Under the pieces are notes generated by a model. It worked only from the letters and a program-made list of their open reading frames with translations, was not told the DNA's origin and searched no databases. From IMG/VR virus record IMGVR_UViG_2565956719_000013: a stretch of 41,123 bases of DNA. One strand, given 5' to 3'. Positions 3,088 through 38,565 of this stretch are shown here, one piece after another. Every line of letters starts with the position of its first letter. Position 1 is the first letter of the stretch. Made by a program: the position numbers and the translations under genes. Source of the DNA: a virus (Duplodnaviria > Heunggongvirae > Uroviricota > Caudoviricetes).

Positions 3088-3370
3088 ACTTTCTCCTGTT
3101 TACTATCTATAAGCCAGTCAATTATTGATGACTAAACCCGCATAGTAAACCATATATGAATCATTATTGTTCCATATCATATATCTCAATAAAAGTACTA
3201 ATGATTTTACAGAACGAGCCAGCAGAGTGGGGGGGCAGTTGTACAGGAACCATAGACTTAATTTTGTATTTAATAATGCTATGGTGTAATAAACCTGAAC
3301 ATGTATTTAAAATACGTACTGATTCATGATAGAATTCAAAGATAACTTTTCACCAACTCCGTTTTTGATA

Positions 3371-6300: not shown

Positions 6301-6515
6301 AGCGGAGACGGAAGAACCACAGAACCGCCACTATAAGTGCCCGCCCCAGTTACCGTATAACCGGTATCCAGAACCAATTCTGTTACGTTCCCGTTCAGGT
6401 CAGACACCTGAACAACCAGGTCTGATTTTCTGAAAATTCGAAAAGTATACGGAAACGACGTCGTAACGCCGTTACCGGTGTATTCGTTGTGGTCAACTTC
6501 GGTTGAGACCGTCAT
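3396..6515 (-). CDS. tailspike: T7 gp17-like N-terminal anchor, Asp-box domain, C-terminal intramolecular-chaperone-type domain; candidate endosialidase
   Basis: 1039 aa; GGAG RBS; N-terminal pattern resembles T7 tail-fibre N-domain; two Asp-box motifs (SGDDGKTW, SSDLGTSW); C-terminal SDGTLK...IAQQ... region resembles S74-type autocleaving chaperone domains. Confidence 0.85.
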   Translation of the reverse strand: MTVSTEVDHNEYTGNGVTTSFPYTFRIFRKSDLVVQVSDLNGNVTELVLDTGYTVTGAGTYSGGSVVLPSPLATGWRITIDRVLDVVQETDLRNQGKFFPEVHEDAFDYLTMLIQQCFGWFRRALMKPSLLAKYYDAKQNKISNLADPSFEQDAVNNRSMRNYVDAAIAGVVGGFGWFIQYGSGAVYRTFQDKMRDAISPKDFGAVGDGINDDSTAISACLEASSPGYKIDGLGLTFKVSTLPDVSRFKNARFLFERIPGQPLFYASEDFIQGELFKITDTPWYNAWTQDKTFVYDNVIYAPFMAGDRHGVNNLHVAWVRSGDDGKTWTTPEWLTDLHENYPTVNYHCMSMGVVRNRLFAVIETRTVSGNKLQVAELWDRPMSRSLRVYGGITKAANQQVAYIRITDHGLFAGDFVNFSNSGVTGVTGNMTVTTVIDKNTFTVTTQNTQDVDQNNEGRYWSFGTSFHSSPWRKTSLGTIPSFVDGSTPVTEIHSFATISDNSFAVGYHNGDIGPRELGILYFSDAFGSPGSFVRRRIPAEYEANASEPCVKYYDGILYLTTRGTLSTQPGSSLHRSSDLGTSWNSLRFPNNVHHSNLPFAKVGDELIIFGSERAFGEWEGGEPDNRYAGNYPRTFMTRVNVNEWSLDNVEWVNVTDQIYQGGIVNSAVGVGSVCIKDNWLYYIFGGEDFLNPWSIGDNNRKYPYVHDGHPADLYCFRVKIKQEEFVSRDFVYGATPNRTLPTFMSTSGVRTVPVPVDFTDDVAVQSLTVHAGTSGQVRAEVKLEGNYAIIAKKVPSDDVTAQRLIVSGGETTSSADGAMITLHGSRSSTPRRAVYNALEHLFENGDVKPYLDNVNALGGPGNRFSIVYLGSNPVVTSDGTLKTEPVSPDETLLDAWGDVRYIAYKWLNAVAIKGEEGARIHHGVIAQQLRDVLISHGLMEEESTTCRYAFLCYDDYPAVYDDVITGQREMPLTDNDGSIIVDEDDNPVMVIEDIIERVEITPAGSRWGVRPDLLFYIEAAWQRREMDKIKERVQSLEER

Positions 6516-6619
6516 GTTAAATCTCCAGATAGTCGCAGCACCCGTTGCGCCGCATATCTGGTTATTCTATTACCTGAAAAACCACATATGGATAGAAAGA
6601 CTGTAAATACGAATAGATA

Positions 6620-6634
6620 TTACCTTTCAGGTAA
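6620..6634. promoter_or_regulatory. operator-like dyad TTACC-N5-GGTAA
   Basis: ATTACCtttcaGGTAAT, perfect dyad between tailspike start (6515) and SOS-box gene. Confidence 0.55.
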
Positions 6635-6671
6635 TTTGCAAAACGTGCTGGATAGCAAACAAATTATTTGC

Positions 6672-6691
6672 TACTGTATAAATATACAGTT
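6672..6691 (+). promoter_or_regulatory. LexA (SOS) box
   Basis: TACTGTATAAATATACAGTT; CTGT-N8-ACAG core at 6674-6689, ~20 bp upstream of ATG 6711. Confidence 0.7.
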
Positions 6692-6710: not shown

Positions 6711-6968
6711 ATGCAGCAGTATCACTATCCACTGGAAGACGGATTTACCGAAAGGATTCACACGCCGGGAGGCGTCAGGTCACTGGTGGAGGGATCGCAC
6801 TTGATGAAATTACTCCGGGATCTCGATAAGGATGGATTTAATGTCGATGGCCCACTTGCCGAACTGACTGCACTGATTAACTACGTCACCAGCTCACAGA
6901 TGTCTATGCAGGATCTGCAAACACATCTCGACTATTGTGCCGAACAATTACGAAAACAAACCAGATAA
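6711..6968 (+). CDS. SOS-regulated small protein, paralog of antirepressor C-terminal domain (candidate antirepressor)
   Basis: GGAGAAG RBS; 85 aa; ~35-40% identical by eye to C-terminal ~80 aa of the 7284..7994 product (shared GV, LM-LL, DG, AELT, QTH positions). Confidence 0.6.
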   Translation: MQQYHYPLEDGFTERIHTPGGVRSLVEGSHLMKLLRDLDKDGFNVDGPLAELTALINYVTSSQMSMQDLQTHLDYCAEQLRKQTR

Positions 6969-6999
6969 GATTTGAAATTACCAATAGGAGTGCTTATAT

Positions 7000-7014
7000 T
7001 TACCTTTGCGGTAA
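7000..7014. promoter_or_regulatory. operator-like dyad TTACC-N5-GGTAA
   Basis: TTTACCtttgcGGTAAA, perfect dyad upstream of antirepressor leader. Confidence 0.55.
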
Positions 7015-7104
7015 ATTTACATCGCACTCCTCTTGTGCCATAGTAATCGGGCACTGGCAAAATCCAGTGCCGGGATTGGCGTCCCGGGTTACTAAGTGGC
7101 GCAT

Positions 7105-7127
7105 ACCACGCCAGACGTGGTTTTTTT
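7105..7127 (+). terminator. intrinsic terminator/attenuator in antirepressor leader
   Basis: stem ACCACG (7105-7110) / CGTGGT (7116-7121), loop CCAGA, T7 tract to 7127. Confidence 0.55.
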
Positions 7128-7283
7128 ATGCGTTAAGCACAGCTATATCCGAATTATGGTGGGCTGGGCAGGGGTCCGAAAGGACGCCGGTACCACTTAG
7201 GCCGGTACGCCAACCTTGTCCAGTTCACCACCAGTAATTGGCGTTGCGGTGGTGATTAAAATCACTAAGTGGAGATAACCACC

Positions 7284-7994
7284 ATGGCTAATGCTCAAAC
7301 TGCCATCTTCAAATTTGAATCTGTTAACCCTATCCGTTCCATCATTATCGATGGCCAACCATGGTTTGTAGCCCAAGACGTTTGTAGTGCGCTGCGTATC
7401 CAAAACGTCACCCAAGCACTTGAAAAACTGGATGATGATGAAAGGTCTATGTTCAACATAGGGCATGAACATCGTGCAATTTTTGACAGCCGAGTAAAAG
7501 AGATCAACATTATCTCCGAGTCAGGCCTCTACACACTGATCCTCCGCTGCCGCGACGCAGTGACACCAGGCACTATCCCCTACCGCTTTCGTAAATGGGT
7601 TACAGGTGAGGTTCTTCCTCAGATCCGCCGCACCGGAAGTTACATTAAAAACTCGCTCCCGCAGGAAGAACGCATAAAGATGGTTGCCGACCAGGTAGCC
7701 AACGCCACGGCGTCAGCAGTAATGCAGGCGATGAAGATAGAGAACAAAACCTACAGTGCCCCACTGAAGCCCGGCTACCGTAGCCTGATTCATTCGCCGT
7801 CTGGTGTTCTCGGCCTGACGGAGAACTCACTGCTGATGAATCTGCTGAACCAGTTACAGGACGACGGGCACGACGTATCGGGCGCGGCGGCGGAGCTGAC
7901 CACCATGTTCTGCTACATCGTCGGTGTGAGCAAATGCCTGCGTGATATCCAGACCCACGCGGAGTACATCAACGACAAGGCAGGGTTCTTCTGA
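7284..7994 (+). CDS. antirepressor with N-terminal Bro-N domain
   Basis: ATG 7284 with AAGTGGAG RBS; N-terminus FKFESVNPIRSIIIDGQPWFVAQDVCSAL matches Bro-N pattern; C-terminal domain paralogous to 6711..6968 product. Confidence 0.7.
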   Translation: MANAQTAIFKFESVNPIRSIIIDGQPWFVAQDVCSALRIQNVTQALEKLDDDERSMFNIGHEHRAIFDSRVKEINIISESGLYTLILRCRDAVTPGTIPYRFRKWVTGEVLPQIRRTGSYIKNSLPQEERIKMVADQVANATASAVMQAMKIENKTYSAPLKPGYRSLIHSPSGVLGLTENSLLMNLLNQLQDDGHDVSGAAAELTTMFCYIVGVSKCLRDIQTHAEYINDKAGFF

Positions 7995-8065
7995 CGGCGG
8001 CGGCACAGGGACGTGCCTTTAAATAATTCTGTACAGATTGCAGACTGGGGGTGAATAGCGTACTA

Positions 8066-8080
8066 TTACCTCAAGGGTAA
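8066..8080. promoter_or_regulatory. operator-like dyad TTACC-N5-GGTAA
   Basis: ATTACCtcaagGGTAAG, perfect dyad ~60 bp upstream of ATG 8140. Confidence 0.55.
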
Positions 8081-8139: not shown

Positions 8140-8772
8140 ATGAGAACAAATACAACAAGAAAAGCGATGCCATACATTATCCCAGAAGCAGATTTCGATA
8201 GAAAACTGAACATGTCTGAGAAGAACACTAGTCACACCGAAAGCTACTTAGCGAAAGGTGTGGTTGATTTCGTTCTTCCGGGATTCACAACACCTTATGG
8301 TTATCGCCTTGTAAAATCTTGTAATGGCGATCATTACAGAATGATTACTACCAGCGATACTCCAGAAACGGTGTATGCGGTTAAGTTAATCTTTCGGGAA
8401 GATATCGTCGAAGCCAAAAGAACATGTACGCAGATCATGGTATGGCGTACGCCTAATGTTATTCATGACCGTGCTGTTCATGGTTTGCCTCAGATTTTTT
8501 TTCAGTTCTTCCTAGAGCAATATGCGATCGTTGTATCTGATGAGCAACAAACAATCGATGGGAGAAGATTCTGGGAAAGAATGATTTCTTGGGCTATAAA
8601 CACCCCGGGATATAATGTATACGTTTCAGATGGCTCTGAAGAAGATAGACCTCTTAGCTTCATGACATCATGGGATGATTTCTATAGCCAGTGGGCTGAT
8701 TTCTGTTGGGGCAGTGATAAAGATGTGCATACCCACAGACTACTGGTTATAAGCAAAGATAAACTGCATTAA
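8140..8772 (+). CDS. hypothetical protein, 210 aa, orphan accessory gene
   Basis: GGGAGGA RBS; own upstream dyad and downstream terminator; no motif recognised. Confidence 0.65.
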   Translation: MRTNTTRKAMPYIIPEADFDRKLNMSEKNTSHTESYLAKGVVDFVLPGFTTPYGYRLVKSCNGDHYRMITTSDTPETVYAVKLIFREDIVEAKRTCTQIMVWRTPNVIHDRAVHGLPQIFFQFFLEQYAIVVSDEQQTIDGRRFWERMISWAINTPGYNVYVSDGSEEDRPLSFMTSWDDFYSQWADFCWGSDKDVHTHRLLVISKDKLH

Positions 8773-9055: not shown

Positions 9056-9067
9056 GTGACATGTCAC
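9056..9067. repeat. 12-bp palindrome GTGACATGTCAC (copy 2)
   Basis: perfect palindrome overlapping TGA stop (9064-9066) of 9064..9360, 1 bp from terminator hairpin. Confidence 0.9.
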
Positions 9068-19828: not shown

Positions 19829-20433
19829 CAGGACAACCTCGCAATGGTAAACTCGTCAACCGGTGGCAGTGGTTCCTGTGATTCATTCTGGCTATGCGAG
19901 CCAGCACTAAGAATCACGCGATTGTACATATTGAGGGCAAACGTACCGAGGTCTGCATTCCCAGTCAGCGCCATGTTAATAGCTGCCGCAAGACGCCAGG
20001 CCAACGCCTCCATAAAAATGGCATCAAACATGTTCACATCTGAAACGCGAGAGACATACTTGAGCCATGCCTGCGGCTGGTCTGTGTAGATCAACTTTCC
20101 TGTTCCGTTGGTGTCTGCACCAACTTCGTACTGAACGCGCATTGCTGCTGTTGGATTGCGTACACCAGGAAGCATAATTTCAGTAATGCGCAGACAATCG
20201 GACGGGTACTGATACGCATATTCCCAGTCAGGCGGTGGATTGCTCGTATCTGCAAGCGCCACGCGTTTGGTAGCAAAGTTCCAGTCAAAATCAGAAAGCA
20301 CAGCATCACGGCAGGCCTCAAAGTGCAGCGAACATTCCCCCGCTTCCTTGCTGGCTTCCGTCAGGCTGTTAATGCTGCGGCTATTGCCAATATTGGACAG
20401 CGCACGATTGCAGATCTCTACTACAGAGGCCAT
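19828..20433 (-). CDS. tail tubular protein A-like (adaptor)
   Basis: 201 aa, size and position of T7 gp11; GGGGGTGA RBS; ATGA overlap with next gene. Confidence 0.5.
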   Translation of the reverse strand: MASVVEICNRALSNIGNSRSINSLTEASKEAGECSLHFEACRDAVLSDFDWNFATKRVALADTSNPPPDWEYAYQYPSDCLRITEIMLPGVRNPTAAMRVQYEVGADTNGTGKLIYTDQPQAWLKYVSRVSDVNMFDAIFMEALAWRLAAAINMALTGNADLGTFALNMYNRVILSAGSHSQNESQEPLPPVDEFTIARLS

Positions 20434-25534: not shown

Positions 25535-25624
25535 ATCAATGACTCCGTACGCAATTAAATTATTACCAATTTAACCACATATGATTTATTTATCGTAGAT
25601 AGTTGACATTTAACGCACGAATTA

Positions 25625-25639
25625 TTACCTTTCAGGTAA
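25625..25639. promoter_or_regulatory. operator-like dyad TTACC-N5-GGTAA
   Basis: ATTACCtttcaGGTAAG, ~90 bp upstream of the portal-operon first ORF. Confidence 0.55.
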
Positions 25640-25961: not shown

Positions 25962-26038
25962 GTGGCATTAGCTCAGTCGGACAGAGCAACCGCCTTCTAA
26001 GCGGTTGGTCGCAGGTTCGAATCCTGCATGCCACGCCA
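25962..26038 (+). tRNA. tRNA-Arg (anticodon UCU)
   Basis: 77 nt; acceptor stem GTGGCAT/ATGCCAC, anticodon stem ACCGC/GCGGT with loop CTTCTAA, T-arm GCAGG-TTCGAAT-CCTGC, discriminator G, CCA encoded. Confidence 0.85.
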
Positions 26039-26617: not shown

Positions 26618-26629
26618 GTGACATATCAC
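26618..26629. repeat. near-palindrome GTGACATATCAC (copy 3, one mismatch)
   Basis: 5 bp after Gp49-like stop and 4 bp before terminator hairpin. Confidence 0.8.
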
Positions 26630-28179: not shown

Positions 28180-28775
28180 TGATTGCCATCCTGACGTTCT
28201 TTCAGTCTCTTCCTGGCTGCCGCTATGCGATCAGCAATTGTCACATTCACATTAACATCCAGGCGTTCTTTGAATGCGTTGACGTCGACGTGCTTACCAA
28301 TCAGTTCGAGGTTCTTCACCTTGTCAGGCCATTTAATTTTTTTGAGGATGCCAACCAGCTCTTTCTCGTCTCCACGGCCTTCGAACATGTCGGCCAGTTC
28401 GAAACCTGTCAGGTACTGCCGCCAGACCTTAGGCCATTCCGAGACCGGCTTGATGCTCATATCGTCGTTGAGAATGTCAATCACGTCCATCTGGTCGATC
28501 TCCACCAGGCGCATGAGAACGTAATCAGCACTGACGCGCATTCGTTTGTTGCGCTCCTCCATCAACTCGGCAATCCGTTTTTGAATGCGTTCATCGCGCA
28601 TCATGACACTGGCTTTAACTGCCGCTGTATTTGGGGAGAATCCTGCGTTAATCGCTGCCTGAGTCTGGTTTTCAGGCGTTTTGATGTATGACTGGCAATA
28701 AGCCTCCTGCATTGCTGTTAGTGGCTTAAATTGCGTTGATTTGCGTTTATAGGTTTTAGGTTCAGCAGGCATCAT
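28176..28775 (-). CDS. terminase small subunit
   Basis: start moved to ATGATG 28775-28770 (MMPAEPK...); immediately upstream of large terminase. Confidence 0.65.
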   Translation of the reverse strand: MMPAEPKTYKRKSTQFKPLTAMQEAYCQSYIKTPENQTQAAINAGFSPNTAAVKASVMMRDERIQKRIAELMEERNKRMRVSADYVLMRLVEIDQMDVIDILNDDMSIKPVSEWPKVWRQYLTGFELADMFEGRGDEKELVGILKKIKWPDKVKNLELIGKHVDVNAFKERLDVNVNVTIADRIAAARKRLKERQDGNQ

Positions 28776-28782
28776 AACCACC

Positions 28783-28814
28783 GTGGTAATAGTTACCGTT
28801 GTGGTAATAGTACC
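28783..28814. repeat. two direct copies of GTGGTAATAGT(T)ACC upstream of terS
   Basis: 28783-28797 and 28801-28814; each is a GGTAA-N3/4-TACC inverted arrangement. Confidence 0.8.
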
Positions 28815-28885: not shown

Positions 28886-28897
28886 GTGACATGTCAC
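28886..28897. repeat. 12-bp palindrome GTGACATGTCAC (copy 1)
   Basis: perfect palindrome overlapping TGA stop (28894-28896) of the Cys-rich gene, 41 bp before terminator. Confidence 0.9.
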
Positions 28898-29232
28898 ACT
28901 ATTAATTTCGTTTCATGCCAGCCTTTAGTCACCCAGCATTGCGAGTCACCATTACACGGGCATGAATTAACGGGAACTCTCTCGCCGCACTTACCGCAAA
29001 GTTTTCTGCTGATCGATTTTATACGCCCGCGCACACGTGCATCATCCTGGCGGATCAGCAGCGCGATGTACTCGGCCATTTCATAGGGATCGCGACCAGG
29101 GCGCCGGGCGGCGCAGTTCCGCTCAAGCATTTCAATTTCCTGAGCATCAAGCACAATCTCCAGCTTACGCACACCAGATGCAGCTTGTCTGGCTCTCTGA
29201 GCGGCTTTGCGCTCTGCTGCTGATTTAGCCAT
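28894..29232 (-). CDS. basic protein with C-terminal Cys cluster (zinc-finger-like); candidate regulator
   Basis: ATG 29232 (ORF-track start 29235 is TTG); Arg/Ala-rich N-terminus, CGKCGERVPVNSCPCNGDSQC; last gene before terS. Confidence 0.5.
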   Translation of the reverse strand: MAKSAAERKAAQRARQAASGVRKLEIVLDAQEIEMLERNCAARRPGRDPYEMAEYIALLIRQDDARVRGRIKSISRKLCGKCGERVPVNSCPCNGDSQCWVTKGWHETKLIV

Positions 29233-32158: not shown

Positions 32159-32503
32159 TCAGAACTCTTCGATGTTCCAGCCACCACCTGCTTTCTTTGG
32201 CTTAACCGTTACCCCGATGATTCGGAACGGATACTGATCTGCGGCGACTTTGGTTTTCACCCTGGCGTCGTCGGTCCAGAAACCTTTCACTTCGTGCAGT
32301 TCCATCTCGCCGGTGGCGAGCATCACAGCGAAATCTGGCGTATAGAACGTGTTGTCAGCTAACCGCAGCTTGATACCCTCGAATCGATACCAGGCGATTT
32401 CCCCTGCACGTTTACGCAGCTCAAGGTGCTGGCAATACGCAGATTCAGTTTTGTTCATCTGGCCTGTTTTGAGTCGACCAAGAGCCTGTATCTGTTTTCT
32501 CAT
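32159..32503 (-). CDS. DUF1064-like phage protein
   Basis: 114 aa; pattern QHLELRKRAGEIAWYRFEGIKL recalled for DUF1064; RBS lies inside the dyad at 32507. Confidence 0.5.
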   Translation of the reverse strand: MRKQIQALGRLKTGQMNKTESAYCQHLELRKRAGEIAWYRFEGIKLRLADNTFYTPDFAVMLATGEMELHEVKGFWTDDARVKTKVAADQYPFRIIGVTVKPKKAGGGWNIEEF

Positions 32504-32506
32504 GAT

Positions 32507-32521
32507 TTACCTCTTAGGTAA
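32507..32521. promoter_or_regulatory. operator-like dyad TTACC-N5-GGTAA overlapping RBS
   Basis: TTTACCtcttaGGTAAT, 4 nt upstream of ATG 32503. Confidence 0.5.
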
Positions 32522-32568: not shown

Positions 32569-32583
32569 TTACCTAACAGGTAA
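32569..32583. promoter_or_regulatory. operator-like dyad TTACC-N5-GGTAA
   Basis: ATTACCtaacaGGTAAT between P-like gene stop and DUF1064 gene. Confidence 0.55.
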
Positions 32584-34434: not shown

Positions 34435-34514
34435 GGTAAGCCCTGTTATTAGTATTGGGATTACGGTCATTTTGTGCTGACACAAAAAAAAGATCAACCA
34501 GATTTGGTTATTTA

Positions 34515-34529
34515 TTACCTTTGAGGTAC
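34515..34529. promoter_or_regulatory. operator-like dyad, imperfect (TTACC-N5-GGTAC)
   Basis: ATTACCtttgaGGTACG just downstream of cro-like terminator. Confidence 0.4.
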
Positions 34530-34584: not shown

Positions 34585-34815
34585 TCATGAGTAGAAGAAG
34601 TATGCCAGTTCTGCTTTTGAGCGCAGCCATTGTCTTGTTTTACAGGCTTTAAAAAGCCCATTCATCAATACTTTACCTGGCATTTTGCGCTTACCTGTTA
34701 AGTGAGTCTGGATATAGTGACTCGTCGTTCCGGCTTCCTGTGCGAAGGCTTCACGCTCATCCGGAGTAAGTGCAAGCCAGTGCTTTTTGAAATCGAAATG
34801 TCCGTTATCGCTCAT
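34585..34815 (-). CDS. Cro-like small DNA-binding regulator
   Basis: 76 aa; HTH-like EREAFAQEAGTTSHYIQTHL; divergent from CI-like gene; transcribed toward replication genes. Confidence 0.55.
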   Translation of the reverse strand: MSDNGHFDFKKHWLALTPDEREAFAQEAGTTSHYIQTHLTGKRKMPGKVLMNGLFKACKTRQWLRSKAELAYFFYS

Positions 34816-34882
34816 AGCTATTGCCTGATATTTATTTCAGATAATAAATATTCACCCATAAGGTAACAAAAATCAAGGATAG

Positions 34883-34897
34883 TTACCTATGAGGTGC
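34883..34897. promoter_or_regulatory. operator-like dyad, imperfect (TTACC-N5-GGTGC), in switch region
   Basis: AGTTACCtatgaGGTGC; 16 bp centre-to-centre from the next dyad. Confidence 0.45.
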
Positions 34898-34898
34898 A

Positions 34899-34913
34899 TT
34901 TACCTGTTGGGTA
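34899..34913. promoter_or_regulatory. operator-like dyad TTACC-N5-GGTAA in switch region
   Basis: TTTACCtgttgGGTAAT between cro-like and CI-like genes. Confidence 0.6.
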
Positions 34914-34969
34914 ATATTGCTTTAAATTGAATCATCTACTGATTCATATATGAGGCGATTTTCCAGAAA

Positions 34970-35554
34970 ATGAAAAGTATCCAGGACGTCCGCAGGCAAA
35001 ATCTCAACGACTTGATCGACCGTGAATTCAATGGTGTTCAGACGCGGATGGCAGAAAAACTTGGAACTCAGGCAAATCTGGTAAACCGCTGGGCTCTTGG
35101 CAAGAAGGTTATCGGCGACCAGGTTGCGCGAAAAATTGAAGCTGCCGCCAATAAACCCCGTAACTGGCTTGATATTGATCGCTCGCTTTCTCAGGAGGGT
35201 TTTCAGCCTGTCGGCCCGAGCGATATAGGTCAGCTGGCGGCTCACAACCTGGAACGCTGGATGAGCGAAAGCCGCGACCTTTCAACGCAGGGAAAACTAC
35301 ACCGCGCATCCGGCGTCGCCCAGGTGACAATCAGCCGCCTGTTAAACAATGAGGTCAGCGTTTCCATTTCCACCCTGGAGAATGTTGCATCCGCATTCGG
35401 GCGTCACGGCTATGAACTACTGATTCACCCGCACGACCCTGCGACTATCAACTATGACCGCTCACGCTACGCATTGTTACCCGAAACCGAGAAAGCAAAG
35501 ATCGAAAGTTACATTGAATTTGTCATCAACCAGAACGAAAAAAACAAACAATAA
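34970..35554 (+). CDS. CI-like repressor with two HTH domains, no S24 peptidase domain
   Basis: 194 aa; HTH-like segments QTRMAEKLGTQANLVNRW and SGVAQVTISRLLNNEVSVSISTLENVASAF; no Ser-Lys protease region; poor RBS; 7-codon upstream mini-ORF ends in ATGA at the start. Confidence 0.65.
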   Translation: MKSIQDVRRQNLNDLIDREFNGVQTRMAEKLGTQANLVNRWALGKKVIGDQVARKIEAAANKPRNWLDIDRSLSQEGFQPVGPSDIGQLAAHNLERWMSESRDLSTQGKLHRASGVAQVTISRLLNNEVSVSISTLENVASAFGRHGYELLIHPHDPATINYDRSRYALLPETEKAKIESYIEFVINQNEKNKQ

Positions 35555-35611: not shown

Positions 35612-35626
35612 TTACCTAATGGGTAA
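35612..35626. promoter_or_regulatory. operator-like dyad TTACC-N5-GGTAA
   Basis: ATTACCtaatgGGTAAT downstream of CI-like terminator. Confidence 0.55.
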
Positions 35627-35673
35627 TTTTTTTAACTCATATCTATTGACATCAAACCAAATACGCATAATTA

Positions 35674-35688
35674 TTACCTCAACGGTAA
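35674..35688. promoter_or_regulatory. operator-like dyad TTACC-N5-GGTAA at early rightward promoter
   Basis: ATTACCtcaacGGTAAC; TTGACA at 35646-35651 upstream; ~20 bp before ATG 35708. Confidence 0.55.
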
Positions 35689-35862: not shown

Positions 35863-36162
35863 ATGAACGTTAATCAGCAGAAAAATCTTCAAAAAATCAT
35901 GCTGGCATTCGACAAGGACTACCGCCTGTCAGAACAGCTATATGACCGACAAGTTGAACTGATCGAGAGCATCCGGCTTCATCAACTGGCCTCAACTTTT
36001 GACGCTGTAACAGGCAAAGGAGTTCGCCATGAAGTGCTGGAGGCAGCTAAAGACAGCCCTGAGTTCGAAGAACTTATGGATGCCTACCGGCGCGAGGCAA
36101 TGGCAATTATCGCCCGCTGGGATCTGGCGGATCAGCTTGATGGACAGAGGGACGCGGCATGA
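35863..36162 (+). CDS. hypothetical protein
   Basis: start moved to ATG 35863 (GGGAGGG RBS); ATGA overlap with nuclease gene. Confidence 0.5.
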   Translation: MNVNQQKNLQKIMLAFDKDYRLSEQLYDRQVELIESIRLHQLASTFDAVTGKGVRHEVLEAAKDSPEFEELMDAYRREAMAIIARWDLADQLDGQRDAA

Positions 36163-37907: not shown

Positions 37908-38156
37908 ATGAAAGGTGCATTAGGTAAGAAGGAACTCCTGGCGGTGGTGCCACTGTCATGGAGCACTATCGACCGTATGGAGCGCGCAGGGGAATTTCCT
38001 AAACGCTGGTATATCACCGATAAACGCTGCGCATGGAACCGTGACGAAGTTGAGCGTTGGCTTGATGAACGTCAGGCAGCAAGCCCGGCAGAGTTCCAGG
38101 GTAAAAAACCTCCTGTTCAGCAACGTGTATATCGTCCCGTGAGCAACGCTGCATGA
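37908..38156 (+). CDS. AlpA-family DNA-binding protein (excisionase/regulator-like)
   Basis: GAGAGG RBS; 82 aa; LLAVVPLSWSTIDRMERAGEFPKRWYITDKRCAWNRDEVERWL fits AlpA HTH pattern. Confidence 0.6.
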   Translation: MKGALGKKELLAVVPLSWSTIDRMERAGEFPKRWYITDKRCAWNRDEVERWLDERQAASPAEFQGKKPPVQQRVYRPVSNAA

Positions 38157-38265: not shown

Positions 38266-38565
38266 GTGAGAAAGTTAAGCCGACTTGAAAAATATAACAT
38301 GAACAAGGTTTCAATGCGCAGCCATTCAAAGATTGTCGCCGTTACTCCTGCGGCGATAGAGATCGAAAAACGCGCGATTGAAAGAGAGAAAAAAGGGCAG
38401 TTCCGCATTGCCGCTCACCTTTGGCTTCAGTGTATGGATGTTGCTTCTGGTGATGTTGAGCGTGCAAGGATCGCGGTTCGCAGGGACCAATGTATCACAA
38501 AAGGTAACGGCCTTCGCCGTGGAGACTATAGCGGTATAGGATGTTGCGGGGTGGTTTATGACTAA
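38266..38565 (+). CDS. small hypothetical protein, possible regulator
   Basis: GTG start with GAGAGGG RBS or internal ATG 38314; start uncertain. Confidence 0.35.
   Translation: MRKLSRLEKYNMNKVSMRSHSKIVAVTPAAIEIEKRAIEREKKGQFRIAAHLWLQCMDVASGDVERARIAVRRDQCITKGNGLRRGDYSGIGCCGVVYD

Follow-up and report, generated by a model that had tools for sequence, protein, structure and literature searches.

The window analysed here is a stretch of 41,123 nucleotides of a tailed phage (Caudoviricetes; IMG/VR record IMGVR_UViG_2565956719_000013), in which one promoter-like module, made of a dyad, a nonamer and a GGTAA-containing element, recurs before three leftward units: the tailspike gene (module M1), the portal operon (M2) and the DUF1064 gene (M3). 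What do these modules do, and does their activity depend on a phage factor, as an earlier note on the sequence had proposed? Our analysis suggests, with a probability of about 0.6, that each module is a restart promoter controlled by the repressor Rep of an epsilon15/phiV10-type prophage, in which a sigma70-type promoter stands at a fixed distance past the operator. The 600 bases around M1 share 99.7% identity with Escherichia phage vB_EcoP_ZX5, 91% with phiV10 and about 75% with the Salmonella phages epsilon15 and SPC32H, which identifies the window as a phiV10/epsilon15-type (Uetakevirus) prophage of Escherichia coli. Its orientation is the reverse of that of the epsilon15 record, with the late genes and the PR operon on the minus strand and rep and the PL operon on the plus strand. 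This prophage family is common: of 5426 complete E. coli genomes, 517 carry the M2 region (126 bp), nearly always in the chromosome and mostly as a single copy.

The three modules and their dyad

Direct reading of the minus strand located the three modules where the earlier note had placed them. M1 consists of the dyad TTACCTGAAAGGTAA at 6634-6620, the nonamer TATGTGGTT at 6588-6580 and GGTAAT at 6574-6569. In M2, the same dyad TTACCTGAAAGGTAA at 25639-25625 is followed by TATGTGGTT at 25581-25573 and GGTAAT at 25567-25562, and the 20-mer TATGTGGTT-N5-GGTAAT is indeed common to both modules. M3 starts with the dyad TTACCTGTTAGGTAA at 32583-32569 and continues with TATGTGGTT at 32535-32527; the lone half-site claimed for all three modules is found at M1 and M2, but at M3 a complete second dyad, TTACCTAAGAGGTAA, stands in its place at 32521-32507. 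The distance of 40-50 bp given earlier between dyad and nonamer is approximate, the gaps being 31, 43 and 33 nt (46, 58 and 48 from start to start) in M1, M2 and M3, respectively. With up to two mismatches the dyad occurs 16 times in the window against 0.62 expected, and the exact nonamer occurs three times, solely within the three modules. The combination of a dyad with TAT[GA]TGGTT 15-60 nt further on is found three times, compared with a mean of 0.007 and a maximum of 1 in 300 dinucleotide shuffles. Modules with the same internal spacing are present in epsilon15, SPC32H, Enterobacter phage Tyrion and Klebsiella phage Kp4865-1; Sodalis phage phiSG1, the portal protein of which is 58% identical, has neither dyad nor motif. 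Inspection of the neighbourhoods also bore out that all three modules stand at restart positions after plus-strand insertions or terminators: upstream of M1 lies a LexA/antirepressor block, upstream of M2 a tRNA-Arg/gp49-66 block with a bidirectional terminator, and upstream of M3 a short GC hairpin followed by T7.

By homology, the dyad TTACCT-N3-AGGTAA is the predicted operator of the prophage repressor Rep. In the epsilon15 record AY150271.2, features labelled 'protein_bind, repressor, lysogeny' are placed at 2931-2947 (before gp3/portal), 19895-19911 (before the tailspike gene) and 35906-35922 (before a RuvC-like gene), as well as at 12-27 (before terS) and at three places on the PL side of the repressor gene. 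These annotated sites form a 17-bp palindrome, ATTACC-N5-GGTAAT, and the window dyads have the same arms at homologous genome positions: epsilon15 19895-19911 corresponds to the M1 dyad (6620-6634), 2931-2947 to the M2 dyad (25625-25639) and 35906-35922 to the upstream M3 dyad (32569-32583). As a Rep operator the dyad would exert negative control, and a role as part of an activator site is not borne out, given that its epsilon15 homologues are annotated as repressor-binding. The operator part of the modules is already known from the annotation of this relative; the promoter hexamers and the palindrome described below are annotated in no record examined.

Rep itself is encoded on the plus strand at 34970-35554 as a 194-residue helix-turn-helix (HTH) protein with an HTH_3 domain that matches the SPC32H Rep structure (PDB 5D50, E = 4e-42), the overall identity to the Salmonella proteins being about 42%. 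The SPC32H Rep binds DNA as a tetramer at palindromic sites, with DNA-binding pairs contributed by different dimers (PMC9638917, a later summary). A tetramer with two such pairs fits the paired operators seen here. More than 10 copies of the dyad are found at PL, PR, terS and the antirepressor block, and they cluster around rep at PL and PR. At PL (plus strand), operators at 35612-35626 and 35674-35688 flank a promoter with TTGACA at 35646-35651 and, 16 bp further, TAATTA at 35668-35673. The PR/PRM region (34848-34914, minus strand) contains dyads at 34914-34900, 34897-34883 and 34866-34852, one of which falls within the 17-bp spacer between TTGATT (34876-34871) and GAATAT (34853-34848) of PR. 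Two tandem dyads (28775-28807) directly precede terS, the first being homologous to the annotated epsilon15 site 12-27, and further dyads occur at two plus-strand promoters of the antirepressor block, at 7000 and 8066. From centre to centre, the operator pairs at PL and M3 are 62 bp apart in four of five genomes, the PL pair of Kp4865-1 being separated by 63 bp; according to the coordinates, 62 bp also separate the M2 dyad from a pseudo-dyad ending in GGTAA.

The dyad could alternatively act as an RNA hairpin, namely a boxB/nut-like antitermination or processing signal in the leader transcript, which we consider very improbable. The dyads do fold into hairpins of 6-7 bp (-4.2 to -5.5 kcal/mol, z of -2 to -3.2), the GAA loop of which is reminiscent of the lambda boxB loop. 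However, these hairpins are weak, their invariant arms offer no covariation and the central 3 nt vary freely. Moreover, the copies at PL, PR, terS and the plus-strand promoters overlap -10 or +1 positions on both strands, the dyads are annotated as repressor sites, and the nonamer TATGTGGTT is unstructured (-0.6 kcal/mol, z = 0.12).

Candidate sigma70 promoters at M1, M3 and M2

The earlier note had seen no convincing sigma70 pair at matching spacing. At a strict threshold this holds for M1 and M2, in which a simple consensus scan finds no pair (one is found in M3); a position weight-matrix scan, however, revealed weaker pairs that are conserved. At M1, the -35-like hexamer TCCATA (6587-6592, minus strand; TTCATA in most relatives) is followed after 17 bp by the -10 hexamer TAGAAT (6564-6569), giving a predicted start at about 6557, upstream of the tailspike ATG at 6515. 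The best weight-matrix match lies at this same place in five of five phage genomes, in the form T[TCA]CATA, 17 bp, TAGAAT. We scanned the tailspike N-terminal domain against species-representative genomes, which yielded 20 loci. In 15 genomes, the layout of M1 is constant: the dyad, 29 nt of unrelated sequence, TTCATA (TCCATA here), 17 bp, and TAGAAT, TAAACT or TAAAAT. These genomes come from about a dozen enterobacterial species and one Pseudomonas, and include Citrobacter, Superficieibacter, Scandinavium, Erwinia, Kluyvera, Klebsiella, Pseudescherichia and Pseudomonas lundensis. The pair agrees with the consensus at 8 of 12 positions in the window and, as TTCATA-17-TAGAAT, at 9 of 12 in most of the 15 genomes. 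Neither the hexamers nor the 17-bp spacing vary, in contrast to a partly variable spacer sequence and an unrelated 29-nt upstream gap. Such conservation of hexamers above spacer and flanks is the signature of a sigma70 promoter. Locus L065, considered as a naturally dyad-less M1, turned out to be a deletion derivative that joins replication genes to the tailspike region and is thus uninformative.

Directly 5' of the -10, the M1 spacer carries GGTAA (6570-6574), a putative Rep half-site that 12 of 14 species retain and that does not vary among 39 distinct E. coli prophage variants. Further upstream lies a palindrome-like element, ATCCATATGTGGTT (6580-6593), that includes the nonamer; here, TATGTGGTT takes in the final two positions of the -35-like hexamer and the seven spacer positions that follow.

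M3 is built like PL, with an operator, TTGATT (32549-32544), 17 bp containing the nonamer (within CTTATGTGGTT, 32537-32527), TTTAAT (32526-32521) and a second operator on the start site, predicted at 32514. This pair was found by the weight matrix in five genomes; the window hexamer TTTAAT has no A at -11, and epsilon15 has TAAATT. The downstream operator (O1, 32507-32521) overlaps both the predicted start and the DUF1064 ribosome-binding site (the gene begins with an ATG at 32503), and its 62-bp centre-to-centre distance from the upstream operator (O2, 32569-32583) is kept in five genomes. Weight-matrix scores are 7.5-11.3 for M1, 10.4-12.6 for M3 and 5.9 for M2. Since M1 and M3 have conserved sigma70-type hexamers at proper spacing, a special factor is not needed there. 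The earlier proposal of factor-dependent promoters thus holds as far as promoter regions are concerned, whereas a phage-encoded positive factor is no more than possible.

A second promoter further upstream is plausible from the sequence at both M1 and M3, where the dyad would exactly fill a 16-bp spacer. At M3, O2 lies between TCGATA (32590-32585) and TAAAAT (32568-32563), in the full form TCGATA-A-dyad-TAAAAT, which agrees with the consensus at 9 of 12 positions. The possible counterpart at M1 (P_up, 6614-6641, minus strand) has weak hexamers, TTGCAA (6641-6636) and TATCTA (6619-6614), in the arrangement TTGCAA-A-dyad-TATCTA; most relatives have (T/A)TGCAA-N1-dyad-TAAnnT at this place.

The layout of M2 is that of M1. 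Its core (25557-25596, minus strand) includes AATCATATGTGGTT at 25586-25573, ATCATA at 25585-25580, GGTAA at 25567-25563 and TAATTT at 25562-25557, but the hexamers are weak, ATCATA-17-TAATTT matching only 6 of 12 consensus positions. An alternative pair from the weight-matrix scan, ACGATA (25596-25591), 17 bp, TAAATT (25573-25568), overlaps this core, and the predicted start is accordingly 25550 or 25561. Together with those of M1 and M3, these starts match the ones proposed earlier near 6560, 25560 and 32520. The 45-bp core is identical in all genomes examined, including Klebsiella phage ST512-KPC3phi13.3, the portal protein of which is 60% identical; because the whole core is invariant, comparing hexamer with flank conservation is uninformative at M2. 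A divergent plus-strand promoter, TTGACA (25603-25608), 17 bp, TACCTT (25626-25631), has its -10 within the M2 dyad. Conserved in five genomes as TTGAC(A/C)-17-TACC(T/C)T, it aims at the tRNA-Arg(UCU) gene at 25962-26038. As this -10 falls inside a Rep operator, Rep would silence the tRNA gene in the lysogen. A tRNA-Arg lies at the same place in SPC32H and in a Klebsiella relative.

From the observed sequence, conservation, spacing and Rep homology, we infer promoter activity, looping and timing as follows. In the lysogen, Rep tetramers on the dyads would keep the restart promoters shut. At M3 and PL, Rep would hold both operators, whereas at M1 and M2 it might loop the DNA, one of its DNA-binding pairs contacting the dyad and the other the GGTAA half-site beside the -10; the spacer of the second upstream promoter at M1 and M3 would additionally be taken up by the dyad. 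SOS induction would lift LexA repression of the antirepressor gene ant, and Ant would remove Rep from the DNA. The freed promoters could then re-initiate leftward transcription past terminators and oppositely oriented insertions, driving the tailspike gene from M1, the gp3/portal/head-tail operon from M2 and the DUF1064 operon from M3.

Several points weigh against this model. The operator assignment rests on GenBank annotation and genomic logic, Rep binding being predicted, and a literature search found no experimental paper on these promoters or on the late promoters of these phages. With its centre near -70 (M1) or -82 (M2), the dyad cannot alone block RNA polymerase, and the GGTAA half-site is absent in Pseudomonas lundensis. 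M2 matches the consensus so poorly, though it is required to drive about 16 kb of structural genes, and the main target of its dyad could be the divergent promoter rather than the portal promoter. Finally, the strong conservation of the palindrome containing the nonamer is not accounted for by sigma70 recognition.

The palindrome and its possible binding proteins

The nonamer TATGTGGTT corresponds to the centre and right arm of a 14-bp palindrome, AACCATATATGGTT, the best copies of which lie outside M1-M3. Its register differs among the modules, covering the end of the -35 and part of the spacer in M1 and M2 and lying within the spacer in M3. Taken as a -10 or extended -10, it was rejected for a G at -7 and for lacking TG at -15/-14. 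Compared by eye with consensus sequences, it fits none of those for sigma54, sigma32, sigmaE, sigmaS, CRP, DnaA, IHF and PhoP/CpxR. TATGTGGTT is not a promoter hexamer, and the palindrome AACCATATATGGTT probably binds a further protein. In E. coli prophages the element at M1 alternates between TATGTGGTT and TATATGGTT. Prophages of Samsonia, Proteus and Morganella (loci L177-L182) have a homologous tailspike N-terminus and no TTACC dyad, and have retained CAAATATGG(T/A)T or CCGTATGTGGTT before the tailspike gene; in Proteus and Morganella, AACCATTATT precedes the motif, as if the palindrome arms had shifted about 8 bp apart. A candidate antisense promoter ('M6'), made of a dyad at 7000 and TTATCTGGTT at 6968-6959, was discarded, its 'motif' being the Ant C-terminus with the stop codon and its dyad belonging to the plus-strand promoter TTGAAA-17-TATATT.

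Two further minus-strand units contain the palindrome. M4, before the lysis operon (3142-3161), has ATTCATATATGGTT at 3161-3148, followed immediately by the -10-like TACTAT at 3147-3142, and no Rep dyad. Throughout the phage group (loci L089-L168), the lysis-operon unit is AACCATAWATGGTT directly abutting TAYYRT, with no -35 and often no Rep dyad. We compared 41 distinct variants of M4 from viral contigs, which represent 25 unrelated upstream contexts. Upstream of position -3 the information content is about 0, whereas most positions of the motif reach 1.7-2.0 bits and its central W 1.1; the abutting hexamer reads T (2.0), A (1.7), t (1.3), n, n, T (1.8), i.e., the -10 pattern TAtnnT. Such a palindrome abutting a -10 that lacks a -35 keeps a phage activator possible, and no other unit of this phage group argues as clearly for factor dependence. 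M5, found in five genomes, follows the terminator of the cro-like gene (34490-34529) and consists of a one-mismatch dyad at 34529-34515, AACCAAATCTGGTT at 34509-34496 and GATCTT at 34495-34490. Its GGTTGATCTTTTTT is conserved in the five genomes. Since GATCTT puts a Dam site into the -10-like hexamer, this promoter might be methylation-sensitive.

On this evidence, the modules might instead be activator-dependent middle or late promoters, at which a dimeric phage protein such as the Cro-type HTH or the PerC-family protein binds AACCATATATGGTT in place of a good -35, while Rep adds negative control only. The palindrome would then be centred near -20 in M3, M4 and M5 and near -30 in M1 and M2. 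Lambda CII and T4 MotA, which act near -30, are precedents for such a position. So is Lpa of phage P1, which binds a conserved sequence centred at -22 in late promoters (PMC3152322). We regard this explanation as possible but doubtful. A -10 whose -35 is replaced by a conserved sequence is seen at M4 and plausibly at M5 and M2, and not at M1 and M3, which keep -35-like hexamers. It would accommodate the M4 variants, in which only the palindrome and the abutting TAtnnT are conserved, the shared palindrome and GATCTT of M5, the M2 core, invariant across genera despite its weak sigma70 match, and the persistence of the palindrome before the tailspike gene in the dyad-less Proteus, Morganella and Samsonia prophages; in addition, Cro-like and PerC-like proteins occur solely in phage records that carry the modules. 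However, the palindrome is dispensable at M1: 11 of 14 species-level genomes retain its GG(T/A)T, whereas Pseudocitrobacter, Kluyvera and Buttiauxella have lost the right arm and kept TTCATA-17-TAGAAT. Two registers 10 bp apart would be unusual for a single activator, and M3 and the PL of Tyrion have a good -35 with the palindrome in the spacer, a typical repressor position. Moreover, no homologue of a known activator was found (see below), and the gp49-like 'regulator' is also present in P2-like and Vibrio phages, the one P2-like genome checked being without the motif.

The spacer position at M3 and Tyrion PL also speaks for an unlikely alternative in which the palindrome and GGTAA are weak secondary Rep sites or Cro-like operators and no positive factor is involved. 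The palindrome, as ACC-N6-GGT, resembles the operator, ACC-N5-GGT, and its centre lies 40.5 to 43.5 bp or 52.5 bp from that of the dyad, corresponding to about four or five helical turns; together these features make a purely negative role possible. Rep is a tetramer with two DNA-binding pairs, and the Cro-like HTH protein shares 27% identity with the N-terminal domain of Rep (E = 0.001). On the other hand, an extra base between half-sites is usually ill tolerated by HTH dimers. In addition, many M4 variants have the palindrome with no dyad for looping, and the palindrome is the sole conserved upstream element of M4, a promoter that must be active.

Which protein might bind the palindrome? Scans with Pfam, PHROGs and NCBIfam detected no homologue of Lpa, CII, MotA, Ogr, Mor/C or Q, which leaves uncharacterised PerC-family, Cro-like HTH, AlpA-like and gp49-like proteins as candidates. 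The Cro-type HTH protein is encoded at 34585-34815; the PerC-family protein (PF06069, E = 5.6e-7) at 38266-38565 and the AlpA-like protein at 37908-38156 both belong to the plus-strand PL operon. Rep and the Cro-like and PerC-like proteins are confined to one and the same set of module-carrying phages, so that phyletic profiling cannot separate them. The gp49-like protein (28894-29232, minus strand), the last gene product before terS, has 112 residues and a Cys-rich C-terminus (CxxC...CxC...C). It is highly conserved and labelled 'transcriptional regulator' in PHROGs. It has no match in Pfam, NCBIfam or PDB, and its AlphaFold model, with a pLDDT of 64.7, is too poor for a fold search. Since its homologues extend to P2-like Yersinia, N15-like and Vibrio phages, beyond the phages that carry the modules, and the single P2-like Yersinia genome checked is without the motif, we dropped it as a leading candidate for a late activator.

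A more far-reaching and rather improbable reading is that the palindrome abutting a -10 defines an undescribed class of -35-less promoters, switched by a lineage-specific protein and running the post-cro programme of Uetakevirus prophages. This class would cover the replication, DUF1064/RuvC, head-tail, tailspike and lysis units. To our knowledge, PerC/Pch members are known solely as activators of the LEE virulence island in enteropathogenic and enterohaemorrhagic E. coli; if the reading were true and the protein were the PerC member of the PL operon, a native phage function and a DNA target of this family would be revealed.

Neighbouring features and comparison with known systems

In the block upstream of M1, a near-consensus LexA box, CTGTATAAATATACAG (6674-6689), precedes ant. 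This gene (6711-6968, plus strand) encodes an 85-residue antirepressor of the SPC32H type, matching phrog_450 and an anti-repressor PHROG; the start listed at 6588 for its open reading frame is probably wrong, the ATG at 6711 fitting better. The ant promoter might be a further target of the M1 dyad, which precedes the likely ant start site by about 63 bp. A second antirepressor module, resembling immI of P1, occupies 6972-8080 on the plus strand. Its strong promoter, TTGAAA-17-TATATT (6972-7000), has a Rep dyad at +1 (7000-7014) and is followed by Rfam matches to isrK (7051-7127, 67.7 bits) and the C4 antisense RNA (7152-7235, 66 bits), a Bro-N antirepressor gene (7269-7994), a dyad (8066-8080) and a gene at 8140-8772. 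Elsewhere, a 12-bp palindrome, GTGACATGTCAC, occurs at 9056-9067, 26618-26629 and 28886-28897 (three copies, one with a single mismatch, against 0.1 expected). Each copy adjoins an intrinsic terminator that ends a transcription unit, and epsilon15 and SPC32H likewise have the element, which might serve as a regulated terminator, a processing site or a protein-binding site.

If the modules are Rep-controlled restart promoters, dispersed operators at fixed spacing would put early, replication-proximal, structural and tailspike units under the direct control of one repressor, a departure from the lambda paradigm. The predicted promoter coordinates are concrete enough for engineering, and the family members phiV10, SPC32H and SPN1S serve as reporter or biocontrol phages. 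The unannotated palindrome is the only potentially new feature; were it an activator site, it would explain the timing of late genes in these phages. The modules are best filed as repressor-controlled phage promoters, a known sort, for which dependence on a phage factor is possible.

Among known systems, the Rep operators of epsilon15 and SPC32H are the closest. They have the same ATTACC-N5-GGTAAT dyad as the window at the same places, i.e., before terS, gp3/portal, the tailspike gene and the RuvC/DUF1064 gene and at PL; a LexA box and a small ant likewise adjoin the tailspike module, and the repressor is a homologue of 5D50. Unlike these phages, the window has a second, P1-like antirepressor block (isrK, C4 RNA and Bro-N) with operators of its own. 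The likeness to lambda PL and PR lies in a sigma70 promoter under palindromic operators, paired on the same helical face, and in an oligomeric repressor able to bridge two sites. In lambda, however, only PL and PR are directly controlled and the late genes need Q, whereas here operators also front late structural and replication-proximal operons, and the promoter stands between paired operators 62 bp from each other. Phage P1 similarly places many dispersed operons under one repressor (C1), and the window shares with it the C4 antisense RNA and antirepressor module. The lysis unit M4, with its palindrome abutting a -10 and no -35, also resembles the P1 late promoters, in which the Lpa site is centred at -22 (PMC3152322). 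In contrast to P1, no Lpa homologue was found in the window, the motif sequence is unrelated and the palindrome of M1 and M2 is centred near -30. As to the promoters of lambda CII and T4 MotA, the palindrome of M1 and M2, centred about 29.5 bp before the predicted start, overlaps a poor -35-like hexamer, a likeness of position only; unlike in those promoters, no homologous activator is present and the M1 hexamers are conserved enough to work alone.

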